NCBI GenBank assembly: GCA_964460065.1
Contig: CAYWPF010000120.1
Location: 151 to 64,150 of the forward strand
Direction of reading: 5' to 3'
Length of the DNA: 64,000 nt
Source of the DNA: an uncultured Enterobacteriaceae bacterium
GTDB lineage: Bacteria > Desulfobacterota > Binatia > Bin18
Shown: positions 1,625 through 62,533 of the stretch, in pieces
Layout: the number at the start of each line of letters is the position of its first letter
How positions within the stretch are numbered: position 1 is the stretch's first letter
The notes under the pieces: generated by a model
Database searches by the model: none
What the model was told of the DNA's origin: nothing
What the model saw: only the letters and a program-made list of their open reading frames with translations
Position numbers and translations under genes: made by a program

Positions 1625-2614
1625 TTGGAAGCTACCAAGCTTCCCAAGACAAAAAACGATTTGGTGAAACTTTCAAGACTAGTGTGTAGTGTCGGTCTAA
1701 GTATCGGGTGCGGCTATTTAGCATTTCAAGGTGTTGAGTCTTTCCCACCTTGGTCGTCGTTGCTCCGGATCGATATGGGCCTTGCTCTCTTGGCGACTGC
1801 CTGGCTCGGTCTGATCTTCGTTGTCCGCGCGTACCGCTGGCGTGCGCTACTACTTCCGGCGGTGCCTGTCGATTTGTCTTCCTGTTTCTCTGCCACGGTC
1901 ATAGGATTTATGGGGAATAATATTCTGCCGCTACGTGGAGGCGAAATTTTGCGAATATACGCGTTGTCGAGGTTAGGGGCTGTACCTCCAAGCACTGCAA
2001 TTGCGACCGGTATTTTTGATCGGTTGTTCGATGTGTTGGCTGTGACTATGCTGATTTTGATTTGTGTGCCGCTTGCGCCGGTGCTGAAAGAATATCGGAT
2101 CGTCGCTGTTGTGGGGCTGAGTGTTGTCGTTGGAGTGTTCGGGGCAAGCCTGGGTCTAACCTATGCGAGCCGAATAGGCCGGTGGCTGTGGTTACCTCAT
2201 CGGATACGTTTGGCGGTAGACCGCATCTCGAAAGACTTACAAGTCTTTCGAGATGTACGTCTTCTTTTGAAAACGATCGTTTCCACCCTGGTTATCTGGT
2301 TGGGCATGGTCGTCTATTTCTGGATTTTGTTGTGGTCGTACGGTCTCATGTTGCCTGTCGAAGTATCGCTGTTGCTGGTGGTATTTCTTGCAGTCGGAGT
2401 TGCATTGCCATCCGCGCCGGGTTTCGTCGGTGTGTATCACTATGCGGTTGTATTAGCGCTTTCGCTCTTTGCCGTCGAAAAGGGCGATGCCGTTGCATTC
2501 TCGGTCGTTTCCCACTTGCTCCAGTATATCCCCGTTACCGCTGTTGGGCTGGGTTTGCTAATTGGATCGGGTATTTCGTTATGGCCTCAACGACCGCAAG
2601 AAAACGGGTACTAG
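1625..2614 (+). CDS. UPF0104 / lysyl-PG-synthase-TM-like flippase-like polytopic membrane protein
   Basis: multi-TM protein with NILPLRGGEILRIYALSR motif characteristic of flippase-like domain; TTG start 5 nt after tRNA is uncertain; overlaps next gene. Confidence 0.55.
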   Translation: MEATKLPKTKNDLVKLSRLVCSVGLSIGCGYLAFQGVESFPPWSSLLRIDMGLALLATAWLGLIFVVRAYRWRALLLPAVPVDLSSCFSATVIGFMGNNILPLRGGEILRIYALSRLGAVPPSTAIATGIFDRLFDVLAVTMLILICVPLAPVLKEYRIVAVVGLSVVVGVFGASLGLTYASRIGRWLWLPHRIRLAVDRISKDLQVFRDVRLLLKTIVSTLVIWLGMVVYFWILLWSYGLMLPVEVSLLLVVFLAVGVALPSAPGFVGVYHYAVVLALSLFAVEKGDAVAFSVVSHLLQYIPVTAVGLGLLIGSGISLWPQRPQENGY

Positions 2615-4068
2615 GTCTTCGTGGGCACGCTGCAGCGGGTGGCAATTCCATGAAAAATAGGGTGGGTGCGAACGCCGCGAGAAATTTGAGTGCAACGATC
2701 GCGCTGGGCACTATTGCGGCGGGTGTCTATTACGTAATTGCCTATTTAAGTGTGGACTTTACATACGGAATTGAGCATGAGAAAAGACCAATTTTGTGTT
2801 TCATCCTGCTATATACGGCGGCCTTTTTACCTTACATGGTGGCCATCAAGGTGCTGCGACGTTCCGGGGAGGTACGACATGGGGCGGCTATAGTTCTTTT
2901 GTTCGCAATATTATTCCGTGCGATACTGTTAACTTCCGCTCCAATCCAGGAAGATGATTTCTACCGTTATTTGTGGGATGGGGCTGTCGTGGCAAATGGG
3001 TTGAACCCTTACAAGTACGCCCCTGCGGATTTGAAAGACAACGGCGACCGGGATTCGTCCCGGCTACTCTATGTCGTGTTGCGACGTAGTAATGATCAGT
3101 TGGAGTCGGCGTGGAGCCGGGTGAACCACGCAACGGTCCCGAGTATTTATCCGCCCGTCGCACAGGTGGTGTTTGCTGCCGCATCCCTTATTGAGCCCGG
3201 AAGCTTGTTGGCGCTGCGCCTATTGTTGTTGGCGTTTGACCTGGCCGTCTGTTTGGGTGTGATGTTAATTCTGACGCATCTAAGATTTCCCCCTAGCCTT
3301 TGTGTGGTTTATGCCTGGTCTCCTCTGGTCGTTAAAGAGACAGTAAATTCCGCTCATTTCGACGTAGTCCCGACTTTTTTTGTCGTGTGTGCCTTGTTCG
3401 CAACGTTCAAGGCGCGGACCGTGTTAGGGTTTGTCTGTTTGGGGATTGCGATTTGCGCAAAATTGTTTCCTATCGTGTTCGTGCCGTTCTTCGTTTGTCG
3501 GGCGATACGGCAAAATGGCGTCACGGCCGCGTTGCGGGCGGCTGGCCTGATGTGTCTGGTCATTGGCGCCATCTACATGCCGTTTGTGGATGCGGGAAAT
3601 GGTCTGTGGCGCGGTTCAATGACCTTTGCGGAAAAATGGGAAACGAATAGTCTTTTGTTCTCGGTTGTAAGGCTATTTTTTGCCGAGCGATGGTCTGCAA
3701 ATGCGGCAATAGCCATAATTGCAGTAGGGGTGATCTTGGCGCTAGTCCTAAGAATCAAAGACTGGAGCGATCAAAACCTCGCTTGGGCGTGTTTTGTTAC
3801 CCTGGGAGGAGTGTTGTTAATTAGCCCCGTTGCGAACCCGTGGTACTTTGTGTGGATTATGCCGTTTTTGTGTCTATTCCGGAGCGAGGCCTGGGTCTCG
3901 TTAACCGCATTATTGGGCATGTATTACTTGAATTTCTATTTCATGTATTCTGGGCTTTCGGCTTACGTCGACTATGTGAAATGGTTTGTGTTCCTTCCAT
4001 TCTTCTTGTTTTTAGCGCGAGAAGTGTGGCAAGTCAGAAAAGGGGAAACGCTCATTGGACACGGATAA
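2581..4068 (+). CDS. GT-C fold polytopic membrane glycosyltransferase (ArnT/PMT/DUF2029-like)
   Basis: about 12 TM helices; acidic first-loop motif EDDFYRYLWDG; start taken at ATG 2581 (or 2650); the 2062-2580 in-frame extension overlaps the upstream gene and is discounted. Confidence 0.6.
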   Translation: MASTTARKRVLGLRGHAAAGGNSMKNRVGANAARNLSATIALGTIAAGVYYVIAYLSVDFTYGIEHEKRPILCFILLYTAAFLPYMVAIKVLRRSGEVRHGAAIVLLFAILFRAILLTSAPIQEDDFYRYLWDGAVVANGLNPYKYAPADLKDNGDRDSSRLLYVVLRRSNDQLESAWSRVNHATVPSIYPPVAQVVFAAASLIEPGSLLALRLLLLAFDLAVCLGVMLILTHLRFPPSLCVVYAWSPLVVKETVNSAHFDVVPTFFVVCALFATFKARTVLGFVCLGIAICAKLFPIVFVPFFVCRAIRQNGVTAALRAAGLMCLVIGAIYMPFVDAGNGLWRGSMTFAEKWETNSLLFSVVRLFFAERWSANAAIAIIAVGVILALVLRIKDWSDQNLAWACFVTLGGVLLISPVANPWYFVWIMPFLCLFRSEAWVSLTALLGMYYLNFYFMYSGLSAYVDYVKWFVFLPFFLFLAREVWQVRKGETLIGHG

Positions 4069-11010: not shown

Positions 11011-12297
11011 CTAATGGACTGAGTCACTCTTCTCGCGTTCGAAGGGGTGCACGTATCGGAATTGCTCTGAGGCCGCCAATTTCTTGTAGGAGCCGAATTG
11101 TTTGTCTGGATCTTCTATAAGATCAAGCGGGCTCATTTCATCATCGGCATGATCAAAAATTTTCCGCAATTTATAAGTTGTGGACCGTTCGGCCGGTGTT
11201 CTGTTTATGTCTCGGATGATCCGACGCAATTCCTTCGGCGGTACCAGTTGGCCGTATTGAGCCCCTGCGGAGGTCGAAATGCTCTCATTTATCAGTGTTC
11301 CTCCGAGGTCATTAGCCCCCACCGTGAGCAAGTGTTGGGACATTTTCAGGCCTTCTTTAACCCAGGAAGCCTGAATGTTTCGGAAGGTTGGACCGAGCAT
11401 GAGCCGGGCTATCGCGTGTACACGGATGACTTCCGCACCCGTCGCTCCCTCACGTACGCCTTTCACAAGTTTCCGCTGGTACATTGGGGCTTCTTGGTGA
11501 ATCAATGATAGGGGCACAAATTCGGTGAAACCGTTGGTCTCTTTCTGAATATCCCGAAGCAGGTTCATGTGCTTTACCCAGTGCTCGGGAGTTTCGATAT
11601 GGCCGTACATGATAGTGGATGTGGTAGGTATGCCGAGGCTGTGTGCCGAGGTGATAACTTCTATCCATTGCTTCGTCGTAATGCGTCCCGGGGCTATGAT
11701 GTCCCGTATCTTTTGATCCAGGATTTCTGCGGAAGTGCCTGGCAGAGTGTCCAACCCAGCATCCTTGAGGCCACGGAGGTACTCTAGGATTGGAATGCCC
11801 GACCGAACGGAGCCGTATAAAACTTCCTCAGGGGAGAATGCGTGAACGTGGAGGTCGGGGAACGCGTTTTTGACTGCGCGAGTTAAGTCGATGTATAAAC
11901 TACCCTTCATCTTCGGGGGCAAACCAGCTTGCAGGCAAACTTCGGTAGCACCCATTTCGATCGCTTCCTGAGCTCGGCGAATTATTTCTCCCTCGGGCAA
12001 AAAGTAGCCTTCTTCCTCCCGAAATTCTCTGCTGAAGGCGCAAAAAGTACAGTGCTTGATGCAGACGTTAGTGAAATTGATATTTCGATTAACCACATAC
12101 GTAGCGACGTCGCCGACCTGTCTTCGGCGCATTTCGTCCGCAACCAGACCTATTGCGTGCAGGTCGAGGCCGGACGCTGTACACAAGCGCAGCGCGTCTT
12201 TCCAAGAGACTTCCTTCTCCTCCATTGCCTGGTGGAGAATAGAGCTGACGTCGTGACTAATGCTGTCAAGTATGCCGTCTAGTGTTTTGGCTGTCAC
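11011..12297 (-). CDS. cofH: FO synthase subunit 2 (radical SAM)
   Basis: NINFTNVCIKHCTFCAF radical-SAM CxxxCxxC cluster in the CofH-type context. Confidence 0.8.
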   Translation of the reverse strand: MTAKTLDGILDSISHDVSSILHQAMEEKEVSWKDALRLCTASGLDLHAIGLVADEMRRRQVGDVATYVVNRNINFTNVCIKHCTFCAFSREFREEEGYFLPEGEIIRRAQEAIEMGATEVCLQAGLPPKMKGSLYIDLTRAVKNAFPDLHVHAFSPEEVLYGSVRSGIPILEYLRGLKDAGLDTLPGTSAEILDQKIRDIIAPGRITTKQWIEVITSAHSLGIPTTSTIMYGHIETPEHWVKHMNLLRDIQKETNGFTEFVPLSLIHQEAPMYQRKLVKGVREGATGAEVIRVHAIARLMLGPTFRNIQASWVKEGLKMSQHLLTVGANDLGGTLINESISTSAGAQYGQLVPPKELRRIIRDINRTPAERSTTYKLRKIFDHADDEMSPLDLIEDPDKQFGSYKKLAASEQFRYVHPFEREKSDSVH

Positions 12298-12358
12298 TGT
12301 ATGATCTCCTTAAATTCGGTCGGATATTGCTTTCTGCCGCGCGCCGAATTTGTTATTG

Positions 12359-13582
12359 CTACGCCGTAACTTCTACGTGAAGTTCTCGAGTGCGCGGCTG
12401 CAAGGCAGGTAGGAGGAACCCTGGTCTTTCAATATATTCCTCGTAAATTGCAAGTCTTTCGCGCAGAGAAAATCCTTCTTGATTGCAGGTTTTTTCCAGA
12501 ATTTCCAGATGAGGCCAAGCGGCCTCGGGATTCACATAATCTTTTGAAACGGGAGAAATTCCTCCCCAGTCATTTATTCCGGATCTGAGGATGAGTTTAT
12601 GATCGTCTGGGCTAAGGTTAGGCGGGGCCTGTAGGTTCATTTGCCCGCCGAGAAGGAGTCGGGCCACCGCTATTGTCCGTGCCAGTTCGAGGTTTTCCGG
12701 CTCCGGTGCATCAGCCATTCTTGTATTGGGCTTCGCTCGAAAATTCTGAACGATAACTTCTTGAATATGGCCGTACTTCTGGTGTAATTTGCGGATTGCC
12801 AGGAGGCTATCCACTACCTCCATTCGGGTCTCGCCAATGCCGATCAAAATTCCGGTTGTAAAGGGAATTTCAAGCTCACCGGCTTCACGAATCATCTTTA
12901 CCCGTACTTCGGGACGCTTGTCTGGAGCGGAAAAGTGCGCCATTCCCCGCTCGCATAGTCTAGGGCTTATGTTTTCCAGCATCAGCCCTAGACTGACGTT
13001 CACGTCCTTCAGTTTCTTCATTTCGGCTAACGACATGACCCCAGCATTTGTATGTGGAAGAATGCCATACTCGAGGGCGATTTCGCAGGCGCGATAAACG
13101 AATTCCGTTGTAGTTTTGTGTCCTAGCTTCGCTAATGCCGCGCGGTAGCTACTAAAAGCGTACTCAGGCTTATCGCCTAAACACATCAGGGCCTCTTTGC
13201 ACCCTTGCTCCTTGGCACGATCCAGCCACTCGCGGAGATCTCCATGGCTCATAGTCCAGGCGTCTGTGTCACGAGGATCTTTTCGGAAAGTGCAATATGA
13301 ACACCGGTCCCGGCAGAGGTTCGTGACAGGCAAAAAAACTTTTCGTGAGTAGGTAACGGTTTTGCCTTTATCGCGATCGCGAAGTAGGGCCGCAGCCTCC
13401 AGCAGTGCCGGTAGTTCCTCGTTAGGGAAATCTAATAGGGTATAGCCTTCCTCGGCGGTTACCGGCTCGTTGTTTAGGGCCTTCTCGAGGATCACTTGTT
13501 TGTGAGCTTTCACACATACCCCCATGCGGAACGGCACTGCCAGACTAGTAGGGCAGATCCAAATTGTCAACGGTTCTTCCAA
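12359..13582 (-). CDS. cofG: FO synthase subunit 1 (7,8-didemethyl-8-hydroxy-5-deazariboflavin synthase, radical SAM)
   Basis: VTYSRKVFLPVTNLCRDRCSYCTF CofG-type motif; start TTG 13582 or ATG 13525 uncertain. Confidence 0.8.
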   Translation of the reverse strand: MEEPLTIWICPTSLAVPFRMGVCVKAHKQVILEKALNNEPVTAEEGYTLLDFPNEELPALLEAAALLRDRDKGKTVTYSRKVFLPVTNLCRDRCSYCTFRKDPRDTDAWTMSHGDLREWLDRAKEQGCKEALMCLGDKPEYAFSSYRAALAKLGHKTTTEFVYRACEIALEYGILPHTNAGVMSLAEMKKLKDVNVSLGLMLENISPRLCERGMAHFSAPDKRPEVRVKMIREAGELEIPFTTGILIGIGETRMEVVDSLLAIRKLHQKYGHIQEVIVQNFRAKPNTRMADAPEPENLELARTIAVARLLLGGQMNLQAPPNLSPDDHKLILRSGINDWGGISPVSKDYVNPEAAWPHLEILEKTCNQEGFSLRERLAIYEEYIERPGFLLPALQPRTRELHVEVTA

Positions 13583-35788: not shown

Positions 35789-36394
35789 TTAATGAACAGG
35801 GGTGTTTTGGGACTTGTGAATATACCGTGTAAGTAACAACTGCATGGTATCGGCGGGTTGTATACCTATCAAAGGGAAGTCTCCCAGGAGGAAAGTGGGG
35901 TACCCTAATATCCCAAACGAGGCAGCTTCACGCTCAGTTGCTAGGACACGATGTGTCAGCGCGCCAGATTGAAGAAGAGGACGTAGTTCGGAGCTTGGTA
36001 GCCCTACCGAGCGTGCTATATCGAGTACCACGTCCAGGTCTGCGATATCGCGCTCGTCTTCAAATGCTGCTCTGAATACGGCGTTGTGGAAGAGTAAGAA
36101 TCCCTGTTGGTCTTTAGCGAATTCTGCCGCTTCTAATGCGTAAGTTGAATCCAACCACGTAGGGGGGATTCGGAGCGGAATGCCCGTCTCTCTGGATACG
36201 CGAATTATTTTTCCTTTCGAGTCGGTGTCAATTACTTCTCCGTTCTTCCACCCTTGGTGACGCCGGACTATTTGGACCCCTTTCCAGAGAAGTGTGGCAT
36301 CTATTTGTGCGTCCAACCGTTCCATCACCCGCGCAGCAATGTAGCTGAGCGAAGAGGCATAGTCGTAATAGACCGGTATGCGCACTTTTAACAT
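35789..36394 (-). CDS. DsbA-like thioredoxin-fold protein lacking the CxxC pair (HCCA-isomerase / kappa-GST-like)
   Basis: MLKVRIPVYYDYASSLSY N-terminus fits the DsbA/FrnE family but with Ser replacing the Cys pair; the longer ORF to 36457 starts on TTG. Confidence 0.55.
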   Translation of the reverse strand: MLKVRIPVYYDYASSLSYIAARVMERLDAQIDATLLWKGVQIVRRHQGWKNGEVIDTDSKGKIIRVSRETGIPLRIPPTWLDSTYALEAAEFAKDQQGFLLFHNAVFRAAFEDERDIADLDVVLDIARSVGLPSSELRPLLQSGALTHRVLATEREAASFGILGYPTFLLGDFPLIGIQPADTMQLLLTRYIHKSQNTPVH

Positions 36395-36483
36395 AAGCGT
36401 GTGTCCCGTTTTCCCGAGTGTACAGGTTTCCTGATTGCAAGGACAACCGGGTTGCAATATAGAAGTATCAGGAGGCGGGAATT

Positions 36484-37083
36484 ATGGGCACAATTGTTGT
36501 ACTTAGTCCTATTGGGGATGTTCGGAGTGATGAGTGGCCTTTAGCAGCGAGGGTTAGCGACCTAGCGCATAGAAGAATCGGATTTCTTAACAACCGCAAA
36601 GCAAATGTGGGTGGTTTGCTTGGATCTCTGGAGTCGTTGCTCCGTGAGCGCCACGGGGAATTCGTCGTTATAAAAGCGGAAAAGAACGCGGCTCTAGCTG
36701 CGCCGAAGGAAGTGATGAACCGGTTGTCAACCTGCGACGCGGTTATCGCAGCTATTGGAGATTGAGGCTCATGTACTTCGTGGGGTATCCACGACGTAGT
36801 TGAACTGGAGAAAAGAGGAATACCGACCGTAATGATTTGTAGCGACGAATTCGCGCCTCTCGGGCGTGCGGAGTCTCAAACACTAGGCATGCCTGGAATC
36901 CCCATCGCGACACTTCGGCACCCACTGGCCGGCAACAAGCCAGCGACTGTCCGAGAAAAGGCCCACAACCTTCTTGAGGAAGTAGTGCGCCTACTCACGG
37001 AGTCGAGTGAAGCGTTGGATAAAGAGTATCGACAGGAACAGGTCGGAACAGGAACGTCTAAGGTGAGAAGTGAAATGGCCTAA
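36484..37083 (+). CDS. candidate selenoprotein, UGSC-motif protein (in-frame TGA at 36763-36765 read as selenocysteine)
   Basis: two same-frame ORFs (36484-36765, 36832-37083) joined with no other stop; TGA codon yields ...AAIGD-U-GSCTSWGIHD...; hairpin 36774-36798 downstream; AGGAGG ribosome-binding site before ATG 36484. Confidence 0.65.
36774..36798 (+). promoter_or_regulatory. bacterial SECIS-like hairpin (stem TACTTCGTGG/CCACGACGTA, apical loop GGUAU)
   Basis: begins 9 nt after the in-frame TGA; 9-10 bp stem with one mismatch and a GGU-containing apical loop about 20 nt from the UGA. Confidence 0.55.
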
Positions 37084-38170
37084 GACCATGCCCAATGAAT
37101 CAATAAAGATAACCTTGGAGGATTCGCTGGAAGTGGTGAACGAGTGGTTCTACGATAAAGGGTGGACGGACGGATTGCCTATCATACCACCTACAGAGGT
37201 TCGTGTTCAAAAGCTAATGGACTGGACAGATCGTAGCCGATCGGAGTCTGTGGGGAGGATGCCGCCGAAATACGGCTCTGCAACGATAGAAAAATTAGCG
37301 ATCAATGCGGTAATGGCTGGATGTACGGGAGAATATTTCCCGATAGTGATTGCTTCCGTGGAAGCTTTGCTGCAGGGCCCGTTCAATCTTTACGGCGTGC
37401 AAAGTACGACGCATCCTTGTGCTCCGTTGGTCGTCGTCAGTGGGCCAATTGCCTCCGAAGTGGGAATTAATGGAAAATATAATGCATTTGGACAGGGGTG
37501 GCGGCCGAATGCCACCATAGGCCGTGCCATTCGGTTGGCGTTATTGAACATAGGTGGAGCTACACCGGGGGGGTTGGATAGAGCTACACAGGGCCAACCG
37601 GGGAAATTTAGCTTTTGTGTCGCGGAAAATGAAACGGCCAATCCGTGGGAACCCCTGCATGTCGAGAAGGGTTACCCGTCGACAACGAGTGTAGTTACGG
37701 TGTGCGGCGCAGAAGGGCCGCATAATATTAACGATCACATTAGTAATTCGGCGCAGGGTATCTTGAAGACGATCGCGAGTACGATGGCGGGGATGGGCTC
37801 TAATAACGCCTATGCTTTTGGTGAGCCTATCCTCGCGCTAGGACCCGAGCACGCTTCGATTTTGGCCAGGGACGGTTTGAGCAAAAACGACATTCGTTAT
37901 TACGTATTTGAAAATGCGCGCGTGCCGAGAAATATGTGGGAGGCTGGCGGGATGGCGGGGATGGGGTTTACGCCGGAAGGTGCTTTTACGGAGGATGCAG
38001 CCATTCCGCTAATACGAGAGCCGCAGTCCCTAATGGTTTTAGTAATAGGCGGCCCAGGGCGGCATTCATGCTGGCTGCCTACCTTTGGCGCTATGACCCG
38101 GACAGTCACACGTCCGATAGCCCTCAAAGACGGGACAGCGGCAAAATCTGTGCACGACTTCAGAAAATAA
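37070..38170 (+). CDS. hypothetical protein (366 aa), translationally coupled to the candidate selenoprotein gene
   Basis: start overlaps the selenoprotein stop by 14 nt; no family recognised. Confidence 0.5.
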   Translation: MKWPKTMPNESIKITLEDSLEVVNEWFYDKGWTDGLPIIPPTEVRVQKLMDWTDRSRSESVGRMPPKYGSATIEKLAINAVMAGCTGEYFPIVIASVEALLQGPFNLYGVQSTTHPCAPLVVVSGPIASEVGINGKYNAFGQGWRPNATIGRAIRLALLNIGGATPGGLDRATQGQPGKFSFCVAENETANPWEPLHVEKGYPSTTSVVTVCGAEGPHNINDHISNSAQGILKTIASTMAGMGSNNAYAFGEPILALGPEHASILARDGLSKNDIRYYVFENARVPRNMWEAGGMAGMGFTPEGAFTEDAAIPLIREPQSLMVLVIGGPGRHSCWLPTFGAMTRTVTRPIALKDGTAAKSVHDFRK

Positions 38171-40725: not shown

Positions 40726-40908
40726 GAGAAGACCTCCCTTGTAGAGATTTATAGTGCTAGGAAAAGCCGTGTAGCGCAAGAGCCGACCGAGCGTATGGAA
40801 CCCTGAAAGCGACGTGCGGAAATGCCCGATATTTTGACTTAAAGCCGTTAGTGGCTTATGTGCATATTTCGGAATGTTTCAACGCCAAGGGGATATGGAG
40901 GCCCTTCA

Positions 40909-42189
40909 ATGGAGACAGTGCGCATACCTCGTTATAAGTCCGGCGGTGCTAGTCTGATTTCTTTCAAAACTATCGAATCTGCACACGAGGAAGAGATCAT
41001 TCCTCTTACTGCTGAAGACGGCGGAGAATCGAAAGGAGTACTTTACACCAAGGGCGCCGAGAAGACTGTGGTGTGCCTTATGCACCCACGGGCCGACATG
41101 TCTCGCCATTATGCGGTACCGTACCTTTTGGATGCTGGATATGCAGTCTTTGGCCAGGAGGGACGTTGGCCGGGAAATGACATAGCCTGCATACATGAAA
41201 TGCTGTTAGCCGACGTGGCAGCGGGATTAAAATATCTCCGGGAACACCGTGGGTATCAATCGGTGGTCGTTCTGGGCAACAGTGGCGGTGGGTCGCTGTA
41301 TGCGTTCTATTTGGCGCAAGCGTTTCGGAGTCCACCCGCGCGCTTAAGCACCACGGCGGCTGGCGATGCCTACGATTTAAATCAGATAGCATTGCCAATG
41401 GCGGACGGGATTGTCCTCTTGGCCGCGCACCTAGGCGAAGGCAAGTTTCTTGAAAGGGCGATCGATCCATCCGTGACGGATGAGGGTGATCCCTTGTCGT
41501 GCGATCCCACGTTGGATATGTACAATTCAAAAAACGGCTTTCGAGAGCCGCCCACGCCAAGCGTTTACTCAGCGGCGTTTGGGAAGGAATATAGGGCAGC
41601 ACAGAAGGCACGCGTTGCGCGGATAGACGCGAATGCGCGCGCGTTCGTTGAGGAACAGAATTACTTCCGAGAGATCGCTCGCAGCGAGGAATTGGAGAAT
41701 GCTGCATCTGAGAGGCAAGCATTTATTAGGCGGAGGGCTCTGGTTGGCCGGTACATGGAAATACATCGGACCGAAGCGAACCTTGCGTACACGGACAGTA
41801 CTTTGTCCATGTCCAAACGAGATTACGGTTCCCTGTGGTCCCCACGTCCCGATCTGTTTAATTATACGGAAGCCGGATTTGGGAAATACCAAACGCCGCG
41901 TGCATGGTTAAGTACCTGGTCAGGAATGTCCTCGCGTGCAGCGTTACTAGAGAATATACAGGAGGTTCACCTACCGACACTAGTGCTAAACCACACCGGA
42001 GATCATGCTATTTATCCGGAGGAGGCAGCGGCCGTGTATGCGCAGTCGCCAGCATCGGATAAAGAGGCGGCTAGTGTCGATGCTGATCACTTTGGCTTTT
42101 CCATTGCCGGTGGCACTCGGGCTGGTGGCCGTGACGAGACGATGAGGATTATCGTGGCATGGCTGCAAGCGCGTTATCCCTCGGGTTAG
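40909..42189 (+). CDS. alpha/beta-hydrolase fold protein
   Basis: nucleophile elbow VLGNSGGGSLYA; GGAGG before ATG 40909. Confidence 0.6.
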   Translation: METVRIPRYKSGGASLISFKTIESAHEEEIIPLTAEDGGESKGVLYTKGAEKTVVCLMHPRADMSRHYAVPYLLDAGYAVFGQEGRWPGNDIACIHEMLLADVAAGLKYLREHRGYQSVVVLGNSGGGSLYAFYLAQAFRSPPARLSTTAAGDAYDLNQIALPMADGIVLLAAHLGEGKFLERAIDPSVTDEGDPLSCDPTLDMYNSKNGFREPPTPSVYSAAFGKEYRAAQKARVARIDANARAFVEEQNYFREIARSEELENAASERQAFIRRRALVGRYMEIHRTEANLAYTDSTLSMSKRDYGSLWSPRPDLFNYTEAGFGKYQTPRAWLSTWSGMSSRAALLENIQEVHLPTLVLNHTGDHAIYPEEAAAVYAQSPASDKEAASVDADHFGFSIAGGTRAGGRDETMRIIVAWLQARYPSG

Positions 42190-43871: not shown

Positions 43872-45662
43872 ATGAAACCCCTTCGTATAGCTGTTCTCGT
43901 AAAGCAGGTTCCCAAGTTCGAAAAGATGCAACTAGGTCCCGATGGGCGTCTCTTGCGTGAGGGAGTGGAACTCTCGCTAAACCCTTATTGCCAGCGTGCT
44001 GTGAGTAAAGGCGTTGAACTCGCAAAAGTGAGCGGGGGAGTGTGTACTGTCCTGTCTCTTGGGCCACCCGTAGCTGAAGATGTCATCCGCTGGGGAATTG
44101 CGTGGGGGGCGGAAAATGGGATTTTGATTTCAGACCCTTTGTTTGCGGGCTCTGATACCCTTGCCACGGCACGTGCGCTCGCGGCTGCTTTGACAAAAGA
44201 GGGCCCTTTTGACCTAATTCTCGTTGGGAAAAATTCAGTTGATGCGGACACAGGACAGGTCGGTCCTGAGGTCGCCCAAATTTTGGGGTACCCTTTCGCG
44301 TGTGCTGTTCGCACACTTGAAGTTTGTGAGAACTTCTTGAAACTAGGGTGCGAACACGACGATTCTTGGGTTGATGTTGAGGTGACATTGCCTGTTGTTA
44401 TTTCGACTGCAGAACGGCTGTGTGATCCGGCAAAAGTATCCCCAGAAGCTCGAGCAGAGGTGGACGGCTCGAAGGTGCGCGTCCTAAAGGCGCAGGATCT
44501 GGGCAAGGTCGCATTGGGATCCTGGGGTGAGGCCGGAAGTCCGACTTGGGTGGGAGAGACTAAATCGCTGGGTGTAGAACGGACTAATGTGATGCTTGAG
44601 GGCGGGCTACAAAGGCAGGCCGCTGAGGCCGTTTCCCTGATAAACTTGCGGGGTGCTTTGCGCAGATCTGAAAACAGCGGCGAGAATAATGTCGTCGGAG
44701 ACGCTATCACTGACGCTTCTCGGACAATCGTTGTCGTGATGGAGCCCGGCAGGCCAGGAAGCAGTCGAGAATTGCTAGGCGCTGGTGCCCGTATGGCCCG
44801 CACAATCGGGGGAAGGGTGGTAGGCGTAGAAGTTGGGGATACCGATTTGCAACCTTCCAGCGATCTATATTCGTGGGGTGCGGGGGAAGTGATCCGGTTA
44901 GAGGGGTCGGGAGTCGAGGAAGATGTCGCTTGGGCCCTGGCATCGTATTGCGAGGAATTGTGCCCTTGGTGCGTCCTTGCACCTAGCACTTCGTGGGGTA
45001 GGGAAGTCGCATCCCGGGTCGCGGCCGCGTTGGGGGCTGGGTTGACGGGAGATGCGGTGCGCCTAGAAGTTGAGGCTGACAAACTGGTGAGTTGGAAGCC
45101 TGCATTTGGAGGGAGTTTGGTCGCCGCTATACGGACTAAATCGAAAATCCAGATGGCAACGGTCCGTCCTGGCGTTTTGCCCAGATTAATACCGCGGGCA
45201 AAGAGAGTGCCGCGCACCGAGACAATAGAGGTGGAAAACCGCTCGCGCCTCCGAGTTGTGTCGCGCAGGCAGGACGATGAACTTGACGCGTTGGCATTAG
45301 CGAATCGCGTCGTTGGCATCGGCCAGGGAGTTCGGCCAGATTGTTACGAAGAATTAGAACCGCTTTTGCAAGTGTTAGGGGCGGAGTTGGCAGTTACACG
45401 CAAAGTAACGGACAAAGGTTGGATGCCGCACGCACGCCAGGTGGGCATAACAGGAAGGACGATTTCACCGAATCTATACATTGCACTAGCTGTGGGTGGG
45501 AAATTTAACCATTCCTGCGGGATACAATCCTCGGGTACCATATTGGCAATTAACGTCGACAAAGACGCTCCTATTTTCCGTTTTTCTGATATAGGAATAG
45601 TGGCAGACTGGCGGGAGTGCGTGCCCTTGCTTGTAGAGGAATTTAAGCGCATCGCCGAATAG
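43872..45662 (+). CDS. electron transfer flavoprotein, EtfB-EtfA fused single polypeptide
   Basis: N-terminal EtfB-like (IAVLVKQVP...) and C-terminal EtfA FAD-binding region (LYIALAVGGKFNHSCGIQSSGTILAINVDKDAPIF) in one 596-aa ORF. Confidence 0.8.
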   Translation: MKPLRIAVLVKQVPKFEKMQLGPDGRLLREGVELSLNPYCQRAVSKGVELAKVSGGVCTVLSLGPPVAEDVIRWGIAWGAENGILISDPLFAGSDTLATARALAAALTKEGPFDLILVGKNSVDADTGQVGPEVAQILGYPFACAVRTLEVCENFLKLGCEHDDSWVDVEVTLPVVISTAERLCDPAKVSPEARAEVDGSKVRVLKAQDLGKVALGSWGEAGSPTWVGETKSLGVERTNVMLEGGLQRQAAEAVSLINLRGALRRSENSGENNVVGDAITDASRTIVVVMEPGRPGSSRELLGAGARMARTIGGRVVGVEVGDTDLQPSSDLYSWGAGEVIRLEGSGVEEDVAWALASYCEELCPWCVLAPSTSWGREVASRVAAALGAGLTGDAVRLEVEADKLVSWKPAFGGSLVAAIRTKSKIQMATVRPGVLPRLIPRAKRVPRTETIEVENRSRLRVVSRRQDDELDALALANRVVGIGQGVRPDCYEELEPLLQVLGAELAVTRKVTDKGWMPHARQVGITGRTISPNLYIALAVGGKFNHSCGIQSSGTILAINVDKDAPIFRFSDIGIVADWRECVPLLVEEFKRIAE

Positions 45663-48886: not shown

Positions 48887-50113
48887 ATGCAAGATCAGGA
48901 CCGGCAACAGTATATGCTTTCTGGCGTCAACGTGTTGGACTTTACTCAGTACCTGGCAGGTCCGACTGTAACGCGACTCATGGCCGAGATGGGGGCCAAC
49001 ATCATTAAGGTGGAACAAGCGCCAATGGGTGATCCGTCGCGGCTTCTTCCTTTTATAAAAAATGACCGCAGTGCTTATTTTGTTCAACAAAATCGAGGCA
49101 AGAAAAGTTTGTGTCTTGACTTTGACAAGACGGAGTCGCTGGATATTTTGCATGCGCTTATACCGACGGTGGATGTTGTTGTCGAAAACTTCGGCCCGGG
49201 TGTTATGGAAAAGCGGCATTTGGACTACGCTTCGCTTACGGAGTTGAACGCGCAGGTGATTATGGTCTCCATTTCTGCGTTCGGAAGGAAGAGTCCCTTG
49301 TCGCACAAGGTTGGGTACGACTTCATAGCGCAGGCATTTTCTGGGATTATGCATATGACCGGGAGTCCGGACGGGCCCCCACAGTTTGTGGGCCTTGGTA
49401 TCGCCGATGTAAGCAGCGGGGTGCACGCTTTTGGCGCGCTAGGATATGCGCTGTATCATAGGGAGAGAACTGGTGTCGGCCAACATATCGATATGTCGAT
49501 GATAGATGCTATGTTTCACATGCATGAAGTGAATGTTCAAGGACACACTCTGAGCCAGGGCGAATTTGTGCCCATACGTATGGGGTCGCATCATCCACTC
49601 GTATGCCCGTGCGGAGTATATAAAGGCCCAAAAGGGTGGATTGTTGTATTGGTTTTAGACAGGCAGTGGGAAAACTGTTGTAAGGCTATGGGGATGCCTC
49701 AACTGGTAAAAGATCCGCGCTTCGCCACGAACGCGGACCGGGCAAAAAATCAGGGTGAACTAATCCCCATGATCGACGCCTGGATGCAGACTAAAAAAGA
49801 TGACGAGGAAGTCCTCGCGGCATTCGAAGAACACCGCGTACCGGCGGCACCCGTGATGTCTATTACCGATATTCTCAAACATCCTTATTTCGAAGCGAGA
49901 CAAATGGTGCGCACCGTACCCGATCCTATTCTTGGTGAGGTGACGATACCTGGTTTCCCTCTTAAGTATTCCGCATTTCCGGAACTTCTGGAGATTCAGG
50001 CACCCTTACTCGGCCAGCACGGAGCGGACGTGTTACGCGAAAAATTGAATTACAATGAGGAAACGCTCACATCGTTGAAGACTAGGGGGGTTTTGTATTC
50101 TGAGGATCGCTGA
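48887..50113 (+). CDS. family III CoA-transferase (CaiB/BaiF)
   Basis: VLDFTQYLAGPTVTRLMAEMGANIIKVE N-terminal signature; GGAGG ribosome-binding site. Confidence 0.85.
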   Translation: MQDQDRQQYMLSGVNVLDFTQYLAGPTVTRLMAEMGANIIKVEQAPMGDPSRLLPFIKNDRSAYFVQQNRGKKSLCLDFDKTESLDILHALIPTVDVVVENFGPGVMEKRHLDYASLTELNAQVIMVSISAFGRKSPLSHKVGYDFIAQAFSGIMHMTGSPDGPPQFVGLGIADVSSGVHAFGALGYALYHRERTGVGQHIDMSMIDAMFHMHEVNVQGHTLSQGEFVPIRMGSHHPLVCPCGVYKGPKGWIVVLVLDRQWENCCKAMGMPQLVKDPRFATNADRAKNQGELIPMIDAWMQTKKDDEEVLAAFEEHRVPAAPVMSITDILKHPYFEARQMVRTVPDPILGEVTIPGFPLKYSAFPELLEIQAPLLGQHGADVLREKLNYNEETLTSLKTRGVLYSEDR

Positions 50114-57706: not shown

Positions 57707-58058
57707 GGGGGCGATCTGGTTTCGACGTGGGCTAGAAAGCCAGGGTTGCATGCCGGGGTGCTGTCCCGCCCGTTAAACGGACAGGCTGCTATTTAACTGC
57801 AGATGATTTTGATTACGCTCTAGCTGCCTAGTGCAGCTTGCGTCTTATCGGTCCGAGCCCGTAGGATCGAATAAGGCGATATAAATCGGGATAGGCTTGG
57901 CGTCGTGCTGAGGGGCCACTGGCCGAAACTTTTCCTTAGCTGGTCCGTTGGAATCTTGCTCGTAGGAGTCCATAGGACGAGATTAAATTATGAGCTACGC
58001 AATGTAGACGCCTTGAGTAGACTACTCTCGGACGCGGGTTCAATTCCCGCCGCCTCCA
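57707..58058 (+). ncRNA. ssrA: tmRNA (transfer-messenger RNA)
   Basis: 5' GGGGGCGATCTGGTTTCGAC and 3' GGACGCGGGTTCAATTCCCGCCGCCTCCA tRNA-like ends pairing as an acceptor stem; internal tag ORF ...GCA GAT GAT TTT GAT TAC GCT CTA GCT GCC TAG (A)DDFDYALAA; 16 nt after smpB. Confidence 0.85.
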
Positions 58059-58133
58059 TACCCATAAAGAATGTTTCGAACGTAGGTACGTGTAATCTAT
58101 TGCTGGAGATAAAGTAAAATCGAGAGCAGAAGA

Positions 58134-59375
58134 TTATTCCAACACCTCCGCGACAACCAGCTGCGTTATCTTCTCTTCGTTGTAGCCCAAGATATTTTCC
58201 AATACATTCTGGTTTTCTCTCCCGAGGGTTGGCGCTGACCCAGTAATCTGTGCCGGCGTCCGAGAAAATTTGAAACGGGACCCTTCGACGGTCGTCTTTC
58301 CGAAATCCGGGTGATCGAGCTCAACAAAATGATCGCGGTGTTTCAGTTGCCGGTCCTCATAAAGTTCGTTCATTGTTTCAACGGCGCTTGCTGGGACACT
58401 CTGTGATTGTAACCGTTCCTCGGCCTCGTGCGGGTCGTGTTGGCGAGTCCAGGCGCTGATTGCATCGTCGAGTTCGTCCTGGTGCACTCGTCGCCCCTCC
58501 ACTTTGGCGAAACGCTCGTCTTTACCCAAATCAGGCCTGGCAATCGCTTCGCAGAGGTGCCGCCATTGGTCATCCGTCTCGATCCCGATGGCTATCCAAC
58601 GGTCTTCACCGCTCGACTGATAGACGCCATGTGGCGCGTAGTTGAGATCACGGTTCCCGTTCCTACTTTGTGTCCTCCCGTTCACTGTTTGGTCGAGAAG
58701 GAACGGCGCCAAAAAATGTAAGGAAGCTTCGGCCTGGGCAAGGTCAATGTGTTGGCCATCTCCGGTTTGGTGCTTATGTTCTAGTGCTGCGAGAATCGCT
58801 GCGGCGTTATACCAAGGGGCGATGTAGTCAGTGTACGCTCCGAACGGGCCGGCCGGTTCCCGGTCAGGCCATCCCGTGGGGTCGAAAAATCCGGAGACTG
58901 CAGCCGCGAGATTGCCGAAGCCTGCAAAATGAGAGTGAGGGCCAGTCTGACCCATCAGGCACGTACTCAGCATGATTATTTCTGGCTTAATCTGTTTCAA
59001 CGAATCGTAGTCAAAGCCCCACTCGCGCATAGCTTTTGGGGAAAAGGACTCGGTCACGACGTCCGCCCATTTCACTAGGTCAAGAATCACATCTCTGGCA
59101 TCACCCTTAGAAAGGTTCAGGGTTATCGGCAACTTCCCTGTGTTCATGTTGTTGAAGAGCCCTGAATTATTAGGACCGGGCTGGGTATTCTGGAAAGGCC
59201 CGACCATACGAACCGCATCGAACCTGGTAGTGGATTCGACTCGAACGACAGTAGCCCCGTAGTCGGCGAGTATGCGCGTGGAACCGGGGCCAGCCATAGC
59301 CCACATGAAGTCTAAGACTTTTACCCCGGAAAGTGGCAGTGTGTTATCTTCGGGCTCGTGAGTATTGCTGCTCAT
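58134..59375 (-). CDS. family III CoA-transferase (CaiB/BaiF)
   Basis: VLDFMWAMAGPGSTRILADYGATVVRVE signature. Confidence 0.85.
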   Translation of the reverse strand: MSSNTHEPEDNTLPLSGVKVLDFMWAMAGPGSTRILADYGATVVRVESTTRFDAVRMVGPFQNTQPGPNNSGLFNNMNTGKLPITLNLSKGDARDVILDLVKWADVVTESFSPKAMREWGFDYDSLKQIKPEIIMLSTCLMGQTGPHSHFAGFGNLAAAVSGFFDPTGWPDREPAGPFGAYTDYIAPWYNAAAILAALEHKHQTGDGQHIDLAQAEASLHFLAPFLLDQTVNGRTQSRNGNRDLNYAPHGVYQSSGEDRWIAIGIETDDQWRHLCEAIARPDLGKDERFAKVEGRRVHQDELDDAISAWTRQHDPHEAEERLQSQSVPASAVETMNELYEDRQLKHRDHFVELDHPDFGKTTVEGSRFKFSRTPAQITGSAPTLGRENQNVLENILGYNEEKITQLVVAEVLE

Positions 59376-59401: not shown

Positions 59402-60643
59402 TTATATGACTTGTTGTTTTCGAAGTTCCAAAAGCTCTCCTGATACCAGGCCCAGTTCTTTGTAGACTTCAGCGTTGTGTTCTCCTATCTGGGGAGAGGC
59501 GCGCTTGTAGGCTATTGGGGCCGCGCTAAACTTGGCAAACGGGCCCGGGTACGAAAAAGATTTGCCGGTCTGCGTGTGTTGGACAGGCGTCCAATATTCA
59601 CGAGATTCCAACTGTTCGCTCTGCACGACTTCACTGATAGTTGTTACCGGAGCCACCAGAAGACCTCGGTCGAGAGCCTCTTGAAACAGTTCTTCTTTGG
59701 TCTTTGTAAGAGTAAAACGCTCAACTATCTCTTTGAGCTGTTCATAGTCGGCGAGTGTCTTTTTGTCACCGGAAAACAAAAGGCCGCCCATTCCGATCCA
59801 GTCCATCTGTTGTACATCTTTCCCGCAGAAACCTTCTTCGTAGATCCAGTCCATCAGACGTTTAGTAAAGTGGGCGAACGCCGAGCCGAACAGATATGCG
59901 ATGGAGACATTTCCATCCTTCGCCGGCCACAACAAGCGGATGTTTAGCGGGCCCATCTTGGCGCCGCCGGCCATACGTCTTGTTTCTGCGTCGTTGAGCG
60001 GGGAGGAAAGAATGGTCGACTGTGTCGCCTGCGCGGCGGCTTGTTGGGCAGAGATATCGATATGCTGCCCTTTCCTGGAACGATGAGATTCGTGTAGGGC
60101 AATCAGTGCCGCTGGAGCAGCAGCTGCGCTCGCGTGAAGATACCCTTGCGGCACGCTAAGGCGAACGGGTGGCCGGTCTTCGTCGCCCGTGATAACCAGA
60201 GGCCCGCTGCATGCTAAAATAACTAAATCACTGTCCGCATATGATGCCTTGGGCCCGTCTTGACCGAATGGGGTAATGGATATGTAGATTAGCTCTGGGT
60301 TTATGGTTGCGAGTTCTTCATAGCTGAGTCCGTATTTTTCTAAAGTACCTGGATTATCTGATTCGATGAAGAATTTGGAGGTTTTCACCAACTCACGGAG
60401 TACCTGCTGGCCTTTAGCCTGTTCCAGGTCTAACGTAATGCCGCGTTTGTTCCTGTTGTATGCCCACCAATATAGCGAATTCTCTGGGCTCGGTTTGTCT
60501 TGGTAGAATGGCCCGAGTTTTCGTGCCGAAGCACCACCCGGAGGTTCTACTTTTATGACATCTGCGCCTAGATCAGCTAGAATTTGGCCACACAAAAGAC
60601 CCCTCTCTGTCGTGAGGTCTAGCACTCGGTACGGTTCTAACAT
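59402..60643 (-). CDS. family III CoA-transferase (CaiB/BaiF)
   Basis: VLDLTTERGLLCGQILADLGADVIKVE signature. Confidence 0.85.
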   Translation of the reverse strand: MLEPYRVLDLTTERGLLCGQILADLGADVIKVEPPGGASARKLGPFYQDKPSPENSLYWWAYNRNKRGITLDLEQAKGQQVLRELVKTSKFFIESDNPGTLEKYGLSYEELATINPELIYISITPFGQDGPKASYADSDLVILACSGPLVITGDEDRPPVRLSVPQGYLHASAAAAPAALIALHESHRSRKGQHIDISAQQAAAQATQSTILSSPLNDAETRRMAGGAKMGPLNIRLLWPAKDGNVSIAYLFGSAFAHFTKRLMDWIYEEGFCGKDVQQMDWIGMGGLLFSGDKKTLADYEQLKEIVERFTLTKTKEELFQEALDRGLLVAPVTTISEVVQSEQLESREYWTPVQHTQTGKSFSYPGPFAKFSAAPIAYKRASPQIGEHNAEVYKELGLVSGELLELRKQQVI

Positions 60644-60965: not shown

Positions 60966-61430
60966 CTATTGGGTCACGAGCCCGTTAGATTCGTTCCGAT
61001 TCTCAATAAACGCGGACATAAGGCCGGGAAGGTCAATAGGAGATATGGTCTCCCGTAGTGTGCCCTCGGGACCAACCAGCTGATCGGAGCCGCCAAGAGA
61101 AATGAGAAGGTAGGGTCCTCCTAGAAGGCCTTTTGTCTGAATTGATGCTATAGCGTCCTCTTGAATTTGAACATTATCGCGTATGGTAAGTGTAACTCGC
61201 GCACGCTTTCCCTCTAGATCGATGGAATCAACTCTACCTACCCGAACCCCTGCTATCTCTACTGGAGCTCCGGGCGTCAAACCCGCAGCACTCTCAAAGC
61301 CGGCGTACACCCTGTATCCCCAGTTGTTGTACAAGGACAATTCTCCAATAGAAGAGAAGAGGTAGAGACTGGCGGAAATTCCCAGGACAAGAAATCCACA
61401 AATACTAACGCTGAGGCCGAGTGGGCGCAT
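60966..61430 (-). CDS. mlaD: MCE-domain protein (MlaD-like)
   Basis: N-terminal TM anchor plus MCE domain; no adjacent mlaE/mlaF. Confidence 0.65.
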   Translation of the reverse strand: MRPLGLSVSICGFLVLGISASLYLFSSIGELSLYNNWGYRVYAGFESAAGLTPGAPVEIAGVRVGRVDSIDLEGKRARVTLTIRDNVQIQEDAIASIQTKGLLGGPYLLISLGGSDQLVGPEGTLRETISPIDLPGLMSAFIENRNESNGLVTQ

Positions 61431-61564
61431 TTGCGGAGATTACCAGACTGGGCGGACCCGTCAAAGGGGAAGCGGGTGGGCTAGGTTCCCGGAAACGCGT
61501 AGGCTTGGATGTCGGACGAAGGATTGGGCATACCGACAACGAGCATTGGCGCCTGTTGCTACAA

Positions 61565-62533
61565 ATGCTCTTTTCGTTTGTGATTGACGAAATGCAGTTT
61601 GCCATCGCTACACAGGTAATATTACGCATCCTTTCAGTCGTGAGTATAACTATTCTTCTTCTGTTCTGGCGAGACACCTTTTCACACGCCGCAGATGAGG
61701 AATTGATCGCCAAAGGAGAGTACCTTTTTGCGTCCGCGGGCGGATGCGGGTGTCATACCAGTACCGGAGGCGAACTGAACGCCGGTGGCCGTCCGTTGAC
61801 GACGGCATTCGGTACATTCTACGGGACTAACATCACGCCTGACCCGGTGCACGGAATAGGAGATTGGACCGACAGACAAATTGTCGATGCTTTGCGATCG
61901 GGTGTTGGACCTGGTGGGAGAGCGTTAAGTCCTGCTATGCCGTACCCGGCATTTAGCGGAATGACAGACGCCGATGCTGAAGCCCTAGTTGCCTACCTCC
62001 GTAGCGTCCCGGCAGTAGCTCAGAAGAACGTACCGCATGAAGTGGGTATCCCTTTTCAGGACACAATTATGTGGTTGTGGCGATGGGTCTTCTTTCGTCC
62101 GGCAAATAGCGAGGATCGCGAGGATAGTTACAGTTCAAATACTCAGTGGTCTAGGGGCCGGTACCTGACCGATCATGTCGCTCACTGTACGGAGTGTCAT
62201 ACACCGCGCACATTGTGGGGGAGTCTGCGCGTTGCTGAGTATCTGAAAGGTAATAGAGACGGGATAGATGGAGAACCGACAGGGGACATTACAGCCGATG
62301 AGATTGCCGGAATAGGTCGTTGGACACTCGGTGAGATAGTGGAGCTGTTGCGGACCGGGTACTTGCCCAATTTCGACAATGTTCAGGGCCTGATGGCTCT
62401 CGTAATAGACGGCGCTCACGGCAGAGGGTACAACCGAATGAACGACAGGGACTTATATGCTATTGCAGGTTACCTCAAGTCGTTGAACGGCGATGATAAG
62501 GTGAGAAGGGACCAGACACTGCCTCTCGATTGA
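61565..62533 (+). CDS. diheme c-type cytochrome
   Basis: two CxxCH motifs (CGCHT, CTECHT) after a signal/anchor helix; start ATG 61565 or 61592 (the track ORF opens at 61421). Confidence 0.75.
   Translation: MLFSFVIDEMQFAIATQVILRILSVVSITILLLFWRDTFSHAADEELIAKGEYLFASAGGCGCHTSTGGELNAGGRPLTTAFGTFYGTNITPDPVHGIGDWTDRQIVDALRSGVGPGGRALSPAMPYPAFSGMTDADAEALVAYLRSVPAVAQKNVPHEVGIPFQDTIMWLWRWVFFRPANSEDREDSYSSNTQWSRGRYLTDHVAHCTECHTPRTLWGSLRVAEYLKGNRDGIDGEPTGDITADEIAGIGRWTLGEIVELLRTGYLPNFDNVQGLMALVIDGAHGRGYNRMNDRDLYAIAGYLKSLNGDDKVRRDQTLPLD

Follow-up and report, generated by a model that had tools for sequence, protein, structure and literature searches.

A UGSC-family selenoprotein gene with a predicted SECIS element in a Binatia contig and its coupling to a conserved 360-residue partner

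The stretch of DNA analysed here, hereafter called the window, comprises 64,000 nucleotides (positions 151 to 64,150) of contig CAYWPF010000120.1 from an uncultured bacterium of a Binatia lineage. At 36484-37083 on the forward strand it very probably carries one single selenoprotein gene of the UGSC family, where an in-frame UGA is recoded by a bacterial selenocysteine insertion sequence (SECIS) and where the product may make up one half of a two-part enzyme. The identity of the gene and the recoding of its UGA, both judged from the sequence and its homologues, are the near-certain part of this explanation.

The gene has 199 codons and ends with the stop codon TAA at 37081-37083. An AGGAGG ribosome-binding site can be read off the sequence at 36470-36475 on the same strand, 8 nt 5' of the ATG at 36484. 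The only in-frame TGA is found at 36763-36765 and corresponds to codon 94, and the frame is then open through the ATG at 36832 to the TAA. When the TGA is translated as selenocysteine (Sec, U94), the peptide reads MGTIVV...CDAVIAAIGD-U-GSCTSWGIHDVVELEKRGIPTVMICSDEF..., and codons 36763-36774 encode a U-G-S-C redox motif made up by U94 and C97. An earlier note, written from the letters of the window alone, had described two open reading frames (ORFs; 36484-36765 and 36832-37083) lying in one frame, separated by a single TGA and followed by 66 nt free of stops, and had proposed both a UxxC motif after CDAVIAAIGD and, given the AGGAGG box, a single fused gene. The coordinates are right, the translation contains the motif, and the hidden Markov models (HMMs) of the family span the UGA. 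Public gene callers, on the other hand, cut the gene into ORFs of 93 and 83 amino acids, each of which matches PF24696.

Same-frame ORF pairs divided by one TGA are found 36 times in the window, and the other 35 display no redox-motif context in a check made at the motif level only. Given this number and the modest fold stability described below, the case rests on comparison with other sequences. It is the family HMMs extending across the TGA, the Cys column in the homologues, the conservation of the in-frame TGA, and the suppression of synonymous changes over the hairpin that give the candidate its significance. Of the window genes, 23 have products that align with family profiles over their full length, and TGA is the ordinary terminator of 10 of these genes. 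The code is thus not reassigned, and the recoding is local to the UGA at 36763.

When U is replaced by C for scoring, the fused protein obtains 139.9 bits with NCBIfam NF041046, "UGSC family (seleno)protein", and thus passes the curated threshold of 125. With PF24696, "UGSC", it obtains 165.4 bits (cut-off 25) over residues 6-172, that is on both sides of the UGA. The family membership, which the earlier note had proposed, is thereby substantiated, and by these profiles the window gene is a further member of a known and curated selenoprotein family. The "UGSC-containing protein" family was defined by Zhang and Gladyshev, and their paper lists 255 Sec forms and 21 Cys forms in the Global Ocean Sampling (GOS) data (PMC2398784). 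The window gene shares the D-U-G-S-C-T-S-W motif of this family, which has both Sec and Cys forms and is frequent in non-marine metagenomes. No feature of the gene excludes membership, and it appears as a copy from a Binatia-like lineage.

A search of 5.8 billion proteins gave 22 full-length relatives with 36-54% identity, and all 22 contain DCGSCTSW, with Cys at the UGA column. Scanning one genome per species returned 80 UGSC loci, the best of which is 66% identical to the window protein. An in-frame TGA occupies the Sec column in 37 of these, and their hosts are mostly Candidatus Binatia together with metagenome-assembled genomes of Methylomirabilota, Nitrospinota, and Thermodesulfobacteriota. 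The TGA form is also present in complete Binatia chromosomes such as OZ241351.1, OY763426.1, and OX638322.1. TGC or TGT is found in 42, in Sphingomonas/Sphingobium, haloarchaea, Acidimicrobiia, Embleya/Streptomycetaceae, Conexibacter, Phytohabitans, Methanobacterium, and Dehalococcoidia, while one locus (L069) gave no match in the motif search. A metagenome scan where D-TGA-G-S-C-T-S-(W/R) was fixed and the 3' arm left free found TGA forms in at least 120 contigs. Hence the column holds either Cys or TGA, with conserved coding sequence downstream of it, and the homologues do not end at this position. Sec thus seems to stand in for the Cys that all Cys forms share. D93, G95, S96, and C97 are invariant, and U/C94 and C97 are the only universal cysteine positions of UGSC. 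A four-Cys metal or Fe-S site formed by C84, U94, C97, and C119 was considered and rejected, as C84 is present in 67 of 80 loci and C119 in 44 of 80. A literature search on selenocysteine in Binatia found nothing.

The same comparison bears on whether the TGA might be a genuine stop, the result of a nonsense mutation or a sequencing error, or the border between two small genes of which the second is translated from the ATG at 36832. Automatic gene callers do annotate two ORFs, TGA is the commonest terminator in the window, and termination at a Sec UGA always competes to some extent with insertion. However, the in-frame TGA recurs in the 37 species genomes and the metagenome contigs mentioned above, and the coding sequence is conserved both 5' and 3' of it, the 66 nt that lead up to ATG 36832 included. 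In the Cys forms one contiguous protein runs through this position, the family HMMs match across it, and no ribosome-binding site precedes ATG 36832. A genuine stop is therefore very improbable.

The UGA is followed by a predicted bacterial SECIS hairpin at 36774-36798 on the forward strand, which starts 9 nt 3' of the UGA. Its stem is formed by 36774-36783 and 36789-36798, and the loop GGUAU covers 36784-36788 (UAC-U-UCGUGG / GGUAU / CCACGA-C-GUA), giving a 6-bp upper stem, a 1x1 internal loop, and three further pairs. When the U of the UGA is numbered nt 1, nt 16-21 (UCGUGG) pair with nt 27-32 (CCACGA), U15 is opposite C33, nt 12-14 pair with nt 34-36, and the apical loop is G22-G23-U24-A25-U26. 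An outer helix of 3 bp connects 36769-71 with 36801-03 (nt 7-9 with nt 39-41). The hairpin is encoded by the codons for T-S-W-G-I-H-D, so that the constraints on RNA and protein overlap, and the SECIS element, which is of the fdhF type, overlaps codons 98-105.

The published model for bacterial SECIS (bSECIS) elements describes an apical loop of 3-9 nt on a stem of 4-16 bp, a G within the first two loop positions that is usually followed by G or U, a distance of 16-37 nt from the UGA to the apical loop, and a minimum free energy of -7.5 kcal/mol or lower (PMC13188914). The window hairpin has a 5-nt loop, GGUAU, on the 6 bp upper stem with its three additional pairs; the loop opens with G-G-U; the spacing between the UGA (nt 1-3) and the loop (nt 22-26) is 18 nt; and the folding energy is -10.8 kcal/mol for a 29-nt piece (z -2.7) and -14.3 kcal/mol for a 43-nt piece (z -2.4). 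The hairpin that the earlier note drew, with GGU in its apical loop, is thus present and agrees with the bacterial SECIS geometry on all four points. A stretch of 76 nt folds no better than shuffled sequences (z 0.05). No SECIS-type match was found in Rfam when the whole window was searched at gathering thresholds and 36700-36900 at E up to 10, and Rfam appears to hold no model for the UGSC SECIS element.

A useful comparison is the SECIS element of Escherichia coli fdhF, whose loop contacts SelB through a G and a U, nt 23 and 24 when the U of the UGA is counted as nt 1. The fdhF sequence used was checked; among the matches listed the 42-mer is 100% identical in fdhF, and 5,413 E. coli records contain it with an identity of at least 99%. 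Both hairpins are found inside the coding region immediately 3' of the UGA, and G23-U24 are placed at exactly the same distance from the UGA in the two. As for the loop, fdhF has GGUC(U), the window has GGUAU, and most of the genome Sec loci, which are mainly Binatia, have GGUCU. Unlike the fdhF element, the predicted window SECIS lacks the bulged U17/U18, and its stem sequence is different.

Since part of the stem pairing follows from the T-S-W / (x)-H-D peptide, synonymous sites were tested. Among 38 Sec forms the codon entropy is 0-0.3 bits at ACG, TCG, GGT, CTC, CAC, and GAC (codons +4 to +10) and 0.18 bits at the GAT preceding the UGA, while neighbouring codons for equally conserved amino acids show 0.6-1.9 bits. 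At the same hairpin codons the 42 Cys forms display 1.31 bits for Thr, 1.73 for Ser, 0.64 for His, and 0.59 for Asp. All seven stem pairs are present in 35 of the 37 Sec genome loci, as opposed to 9 of the 42 Cys loci, and G23U24 is found in 37/37 and 2/42, respectively. In a set of 126 distinct Sec sequences, 117 have 7/7 pairs and 114 have G23U24. The freezing of synonymous sites and the retention of the stem in Sec forms, combined with their relaxation in Cys forms, argue that the hairpin is under RNA-level selection specifically where a UGA must be decoded. The conservation of the hairpin and of the residues flanking the TGA, which the earlier note had left to be checked in homologues, is thus established.

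Some of the variants point the same way. In the fused gene L082 (2602-4248) the pair U19-A29 has been changed to C-G, a change paid for by the loss of two otherwise invariant residues, W and H, to R. Both the W and the H of TSWxxHD are Arg here (UGG to CGG and CAC to CGU), and the stem stays paired as U-A becomes C-G and G-C becomes G-U. In L174 and L193 G15-C33 is replaced by A-U, and G-U intermediates are found in other sequences. The divergent Sec forms L084, L104, L191 (SWLVVDQ), and L186 (SWLVRNH) do not have the standard stem; they have hairpins of their own a few nucleotides further 3', for example CUGGUC-GUU-GACCAG.

These data also bear on the idea that the UGA is read without selenium, with for instance Cys or Trp inserted through near-cognate suppression or a variant code, and that the hairpin is a by-product of the S-W-x-x-H-D peptide. 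It is true that the codons for S(TCG)-W...H-D account for five of the seven stem pairs, and that several Cys forms fold similarly. However, the ACG, TCG, GGT/AGT, and NNC choices are fixed in the TGA-bearing genes only, the G23U24 distribution separates Sec from Cys loci, the compensatory changes override an otherwise invariant W and H, and the four members of the outlier subfamily have shifted hairpins of their own in spite of different peptides. When the use of TGA as a terminator in the well-matched window genes is also considered, selenium-free reading has hardly any probability left, and recoding to selenocysteine is strongly preferred.

The gene following UGSC encodes a protein of 360 amino acids. 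It covers 37088-38170 on the forward strand, with the ATG of the public record, and starts 5 nt after the UGSC stop. The protein, here called the partner, has no match in Pfam or NCBIfam; 38 members were searched against Pfam at E up to 10 without any match, and no fold neighbour was found in the PDB. It does, however, belong to a large group of proteins, as a word-indexed search gave more than 7,300 relatives and an exhaustive phmmer search 5,561 cluster representatives, 1,422 of them at E <=1e-30. C85, H261, K179, E186, R152, R155, D34, and D170 are invariant, and Cys85, Cys183, and His261 are conserved.

A partner homologue adjoins UGSC in 78 of the 80 genome loci, from both Bacteria and Archaea, and in the other two the contig ends after UGSC. 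In most lineages it is placed downstream, while in Acidimicrobiia and Embleya it is found immediately upstream. Among the at least 120 metagenome matches listed, 90 Sec loci could be assessed, and all 90 contain the partner: as an in-frame downstream fusion in 43, a separate downstream gene in 42, upstream in three, and on the opposite strand in two. The fused gene L082 mentioned above is one uninterrupted frame of 548 codons, UGSC(TGA)-partner. Looking in the reverse direction, from the partner homologues P0130 and P0107, a split UGSC gene is found directly upstream. Judged by gene order and fusions, UGSC is coupled to the 360-residue partner wherever this can be assessed. A "UGSC/Unknown_1" fusion is mentioned in the 2008 GOS paper (PMC2398784), and Unknown_1 is probably the partner domain.

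The partner family also has other architectures. P0162 is a full UGSC-partner fusion of the Cys form with the motif CGNC, P0145 is a fusion whose UGSC domain is devoid of both motif Cys (IGGSLFG), and P0231 and P0266 consist of tandemly duplicated partner domains without UGSC. Reverse-order fusions are also found among the partner relatives of this set, which in addition includes P0147. In L125 (3419-4453) and L079 (5528-6604) a second, divergent partner copy directly follows the first copy or the UGSC-partner fusion. When it comes to a third conserved operon gene, none was found; in a Pfam census of 112 dereplicated same-strand neighbours no family is present in more than four loci. Single-linkage clustering of the neighbouring ORFs was confounded by spurious ORFs in high-GC loci. 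Amidohydrolases, SDRs, DAO, MFS, NMT1, TctC, and DUF6282 make up the families seen in the census. The neighbouring genes, among which TctA and CoA-transferases are also found, suggest a varied catabolism of organic acids or amides that is not consistent across the loci.

The fold of UGSC was examined using the AlphaFold model of the Cys homologue P0020, which is 47% identical to the window protein. The model displays a Rossmann/flavodoxin-like alpha/beta domain, a parallel five-stranded beta-alpha sandwich, with the U/C-G-S-C motif at the N-terminus of helix 3. UGSC has been labelled as having a "likely Trx-like fold" in the literature (PMC2398784), and on the strength of the model this assignment is corrected to Rossmann-like. 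The thioredoxin-fold UxxC/CxxU selenoproteins (Trx-like, Prx-like, and SelW-like) likewise have a Sec/Cys pair with two-residue spacing at the N-terminus of a helix. UGSC differs from them by its predicted parallel five-stranded sandwich and by its obligate partner or fusion. It is thus improbable that UGSC is a free-standing thioredoxin-like thiol/selenol oxidoreductase serving general redox homeostasis, the role that selenoproteome surveys have taken for granted, with the downstream gene as a mere neighbour, even if the UxxC motif, the published fold label, and the lack of any obvious catabolic operon around the pair in the window would fit such a role.

Outside the family there is a likeness to PrdB and GrdB, the selenoprotein B subunits of D-proline reductase and of glycine/betaine/sarcosine reductases. 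The NCBIfam matches, to GrdB and allied "selenoprotein B" models, are weak yet specific. TIGR01917 matches residues 41-160 at E 5e-7, and the matched profile positions, 296-407 of 431, represent the Sec-bearing C-terminal part. The protein is not a selenoprotein B by the family cut-offs (29 bits against 602.2 and 25.3 bits against 65.45), and the Pfam scan gave no match to PF07355. When UGSC was aligned by hhalign with a PrdB-like profile built from twelve GOS PrdB-like selenoproteins, E was 1.2e-4, with U placed on U and C on C. In PrdB/GrdB (PF07355, TIGR01917/01918) the U-x-x-C follows a beta-strand, starts a helix, and is succeeded by a ...GIPTV... strand, and UGSC is in register with this. 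UGSC differs in not having the N-terminal domain of 150-290 residues, and while the hosts of PrdB/GrdB are Stickland fermenters, those of UGSC are largely aerobic heterotrophs and haloarchaea. Taken together, UGSC looks like a free-standing relative of the PrdB/GrdB U-x-x-C unit, outside their family. Two candidate relationships for the partner were rejected, that to the PrdB N-terminal domain (hhalign E 0.25) and that to the pyruvoyl-type PrdA/GrdE, where the 38 members gave no Pfam match.

A connection to a reducing system is indicated by P0196, a fusion of 695 amino acids where the partner domain is followed by a full thioredoxin-disulfide reductase domain (TIGR01292 positions 2-300 of 300, 331 bits, E 3.6e-99, CAVC motif). 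In L206 (4435-7088) and L207 (487-3140) a Sec-form UGSC, reading FD-TGA-GSCSSW and with the same hairpin, ends where the P0196 gene starts. This single case would tie the UGSC-partner pair to an NAD(P)H-driven disulfide relay. The grd operons carry trxB and trxA, and a thioredoxin reductase link is thus shared by the two systems, through these genes in grd and through the P0196 fusion in UGSC.

A mechanism can be proposed from these observations. The UGA at 36763-65 would be recoded to selenocysteine during translation, with the mRNA hairpin presenting G23/U24 in its 5-nt apical loop and recruiting SelB-GTP-Sec-tRNASec to the ribosome. The product would be a Rossmann/flavodoxin-like protein of about 21 kDa where U/C94-G-S-C97 is the only universal redox feature, and it would form one half of a two-part enzyme, the 360-residue protein being the other half. 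The chemistry would take place on the partner, at an active site comprising Cys85, Cys183, and His261, where the U94 selenolate might act as attacking nucleophile or electron donor. C97 would then resolve the adduct to a selenenylsulfide, and an NAD(P)H flavoprotein of the thioredoxin reductase type would re-reduce it. This picture of a two-part reductase with Sec94 as nucleophile or donor, C97 as the resolving residue, and recharging of the thioredoxin reductase type has about an even chance of being right. It is a more tentative suggestion that UGSC and its partner represent an undescribed oxidoreductase, widespread in Bacteria and Archaea with more than 5,500 partner clusters and present as subunits or as a fusion, which may combine a PrdB/GrdB-related selenol/thiol centre, recharging of the thioredoxin reductase type, and a catalytic subunit without any relative of solved fold.

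The UGSC domain might instead be mainly a structural, regulatory, or metal-handling subunit, where U/C-x-x-C binds a metal or senses the redox state. The retention of the domain in some fused homologues that have lost both Cys, as in P0145, would agree with this, and so would the existence of the tandem-partner proteins P0231 and P0266 and the invariant Cys/His set that the partner has of its own. Selenocysteine is, however, expensive and almost always catalytic in redox enzymes. The large majority of Sec forms over Cys forms in the GOS counts given above, the alignment of the motif with the catalytic U-x-x-C of PrdB/GrdB, and the thioredoxin reductase link through P0196 also speak against such a role, which is considered unlikely.

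The preferred explanation, a recoded UGSC gene whose product would be half of a two-part enzyme, nevertheless meets some opposing evidence, and this is gathered here. At the RNA level, the stability of the hairpin is by itself unremarkable in some homologues, the stem is partly an automatic result of the conserved S-W..H-D, and some Cys forms fold as well. True double-sided covariation is rare among the 126 distinct Sec sequences, because the stem hardly varies. The 23 window ORFs scanned against NCBIfam include no selA, selB, selC, or selD, and ARAGORN and Rfam found no tRNA-Sec, though 64 kb says little about the genome. When it comes to function, the similarity to PrdB/GrdB is weak, with bit scores far below the cut-offs and an hhalign probability of 55%, and the partner is not similar to PrdA/GrdE or to the PrdB N-terminus. 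The thioredoxin reductase fusion is a single protein cluster found on two contigs. The loss of both motif Cys in some fused homologues, such as P0145, means that a structural role without redox activity may exist for the UGSC domain as well. There is no experiment on any UGSC member (PMC13188914).

The gene on the other side of UGSC in the window, 35789-36457 on the reverse strand, is divergently transcribed and encodes a DsbA-like protein (PF01323) with a Cys-free stretch, YASSLSY, near the N-terminus. DsbA-type proteins usually carry a CxxC at the equivalent N-terminal site. The protein has a weak match to the Rcas_1661 (seleno)lipoprotein family and adjoins UGSC only in Binatia-type loci; similarly, the DsbA-like, YchF, and Nudix genes are syntenic with UGSC within Binatia only.

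Further away, a forward-strand ORF of 596 amino acids at 43872-45662 resembles electron-transfer flavoprotein beta in its N-terminal half and alpha in its C-terminal half, and has the appearance of an EtfB-EtfA fusion. CofH and CofG genes, encoding FO synthase of F420 biosynthesis, lie side by side at 11011-13582 on the reverse strand, and three family III CoA-transferase paralogues at 48887-50113, 58134-59375, and 59402-60643. A transfer-messenger RNA gene at 57707-58061 on the forward strand specifies the tag peptide ADDFDYALAA. Three long forward-strand ORFs, 2062-4068, 40858-42189, and 61421-62533 (668, 443, and 370 amino acids), have no NCBIfam match.

The Sec form of UGSC is called as two hypothetical ORFs in public assemblies at every Sec-form locus inspected, for instance L081 2397-2996, L203 3348-4004, L205 3354-4004, and L206 4435-5001, and in the fused UGSC-partner forms the public call starts 3' of the TGA. 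Such calls are a systematic artefact of annotation, and recognition of the UGA and the SECIS element restores one protein from two mis-called ORFs.

UGSC has since 2008 been among the most abundant prokaryotic selenoprotein families. The family itself was already known; what is new is the conserved two-part system with a structurally unplaced partner, and the fusion of this partner to a thioredoxin reductase. The strict coupling or fusion to a large unannotated family, the one thioredoxin reductase fusion, and the predicted fold that is not thioredoxin-like make the orphan UGSC testable. Cys-form pairs are present in the cultured Sphingobium wenxiniae CGMCC 1.7748, Natrialba asiatica DSM 12278, and Embleya scabrispora DSM 41855, and such pairs can be expressed without Sec machinery. 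If UGSC and its partner do form such an undescribed oxidoreductase, one of the most abundant "orphan" selenoprotein families of aquatic metagenomes would provide the redox half in a new class of enzymes.

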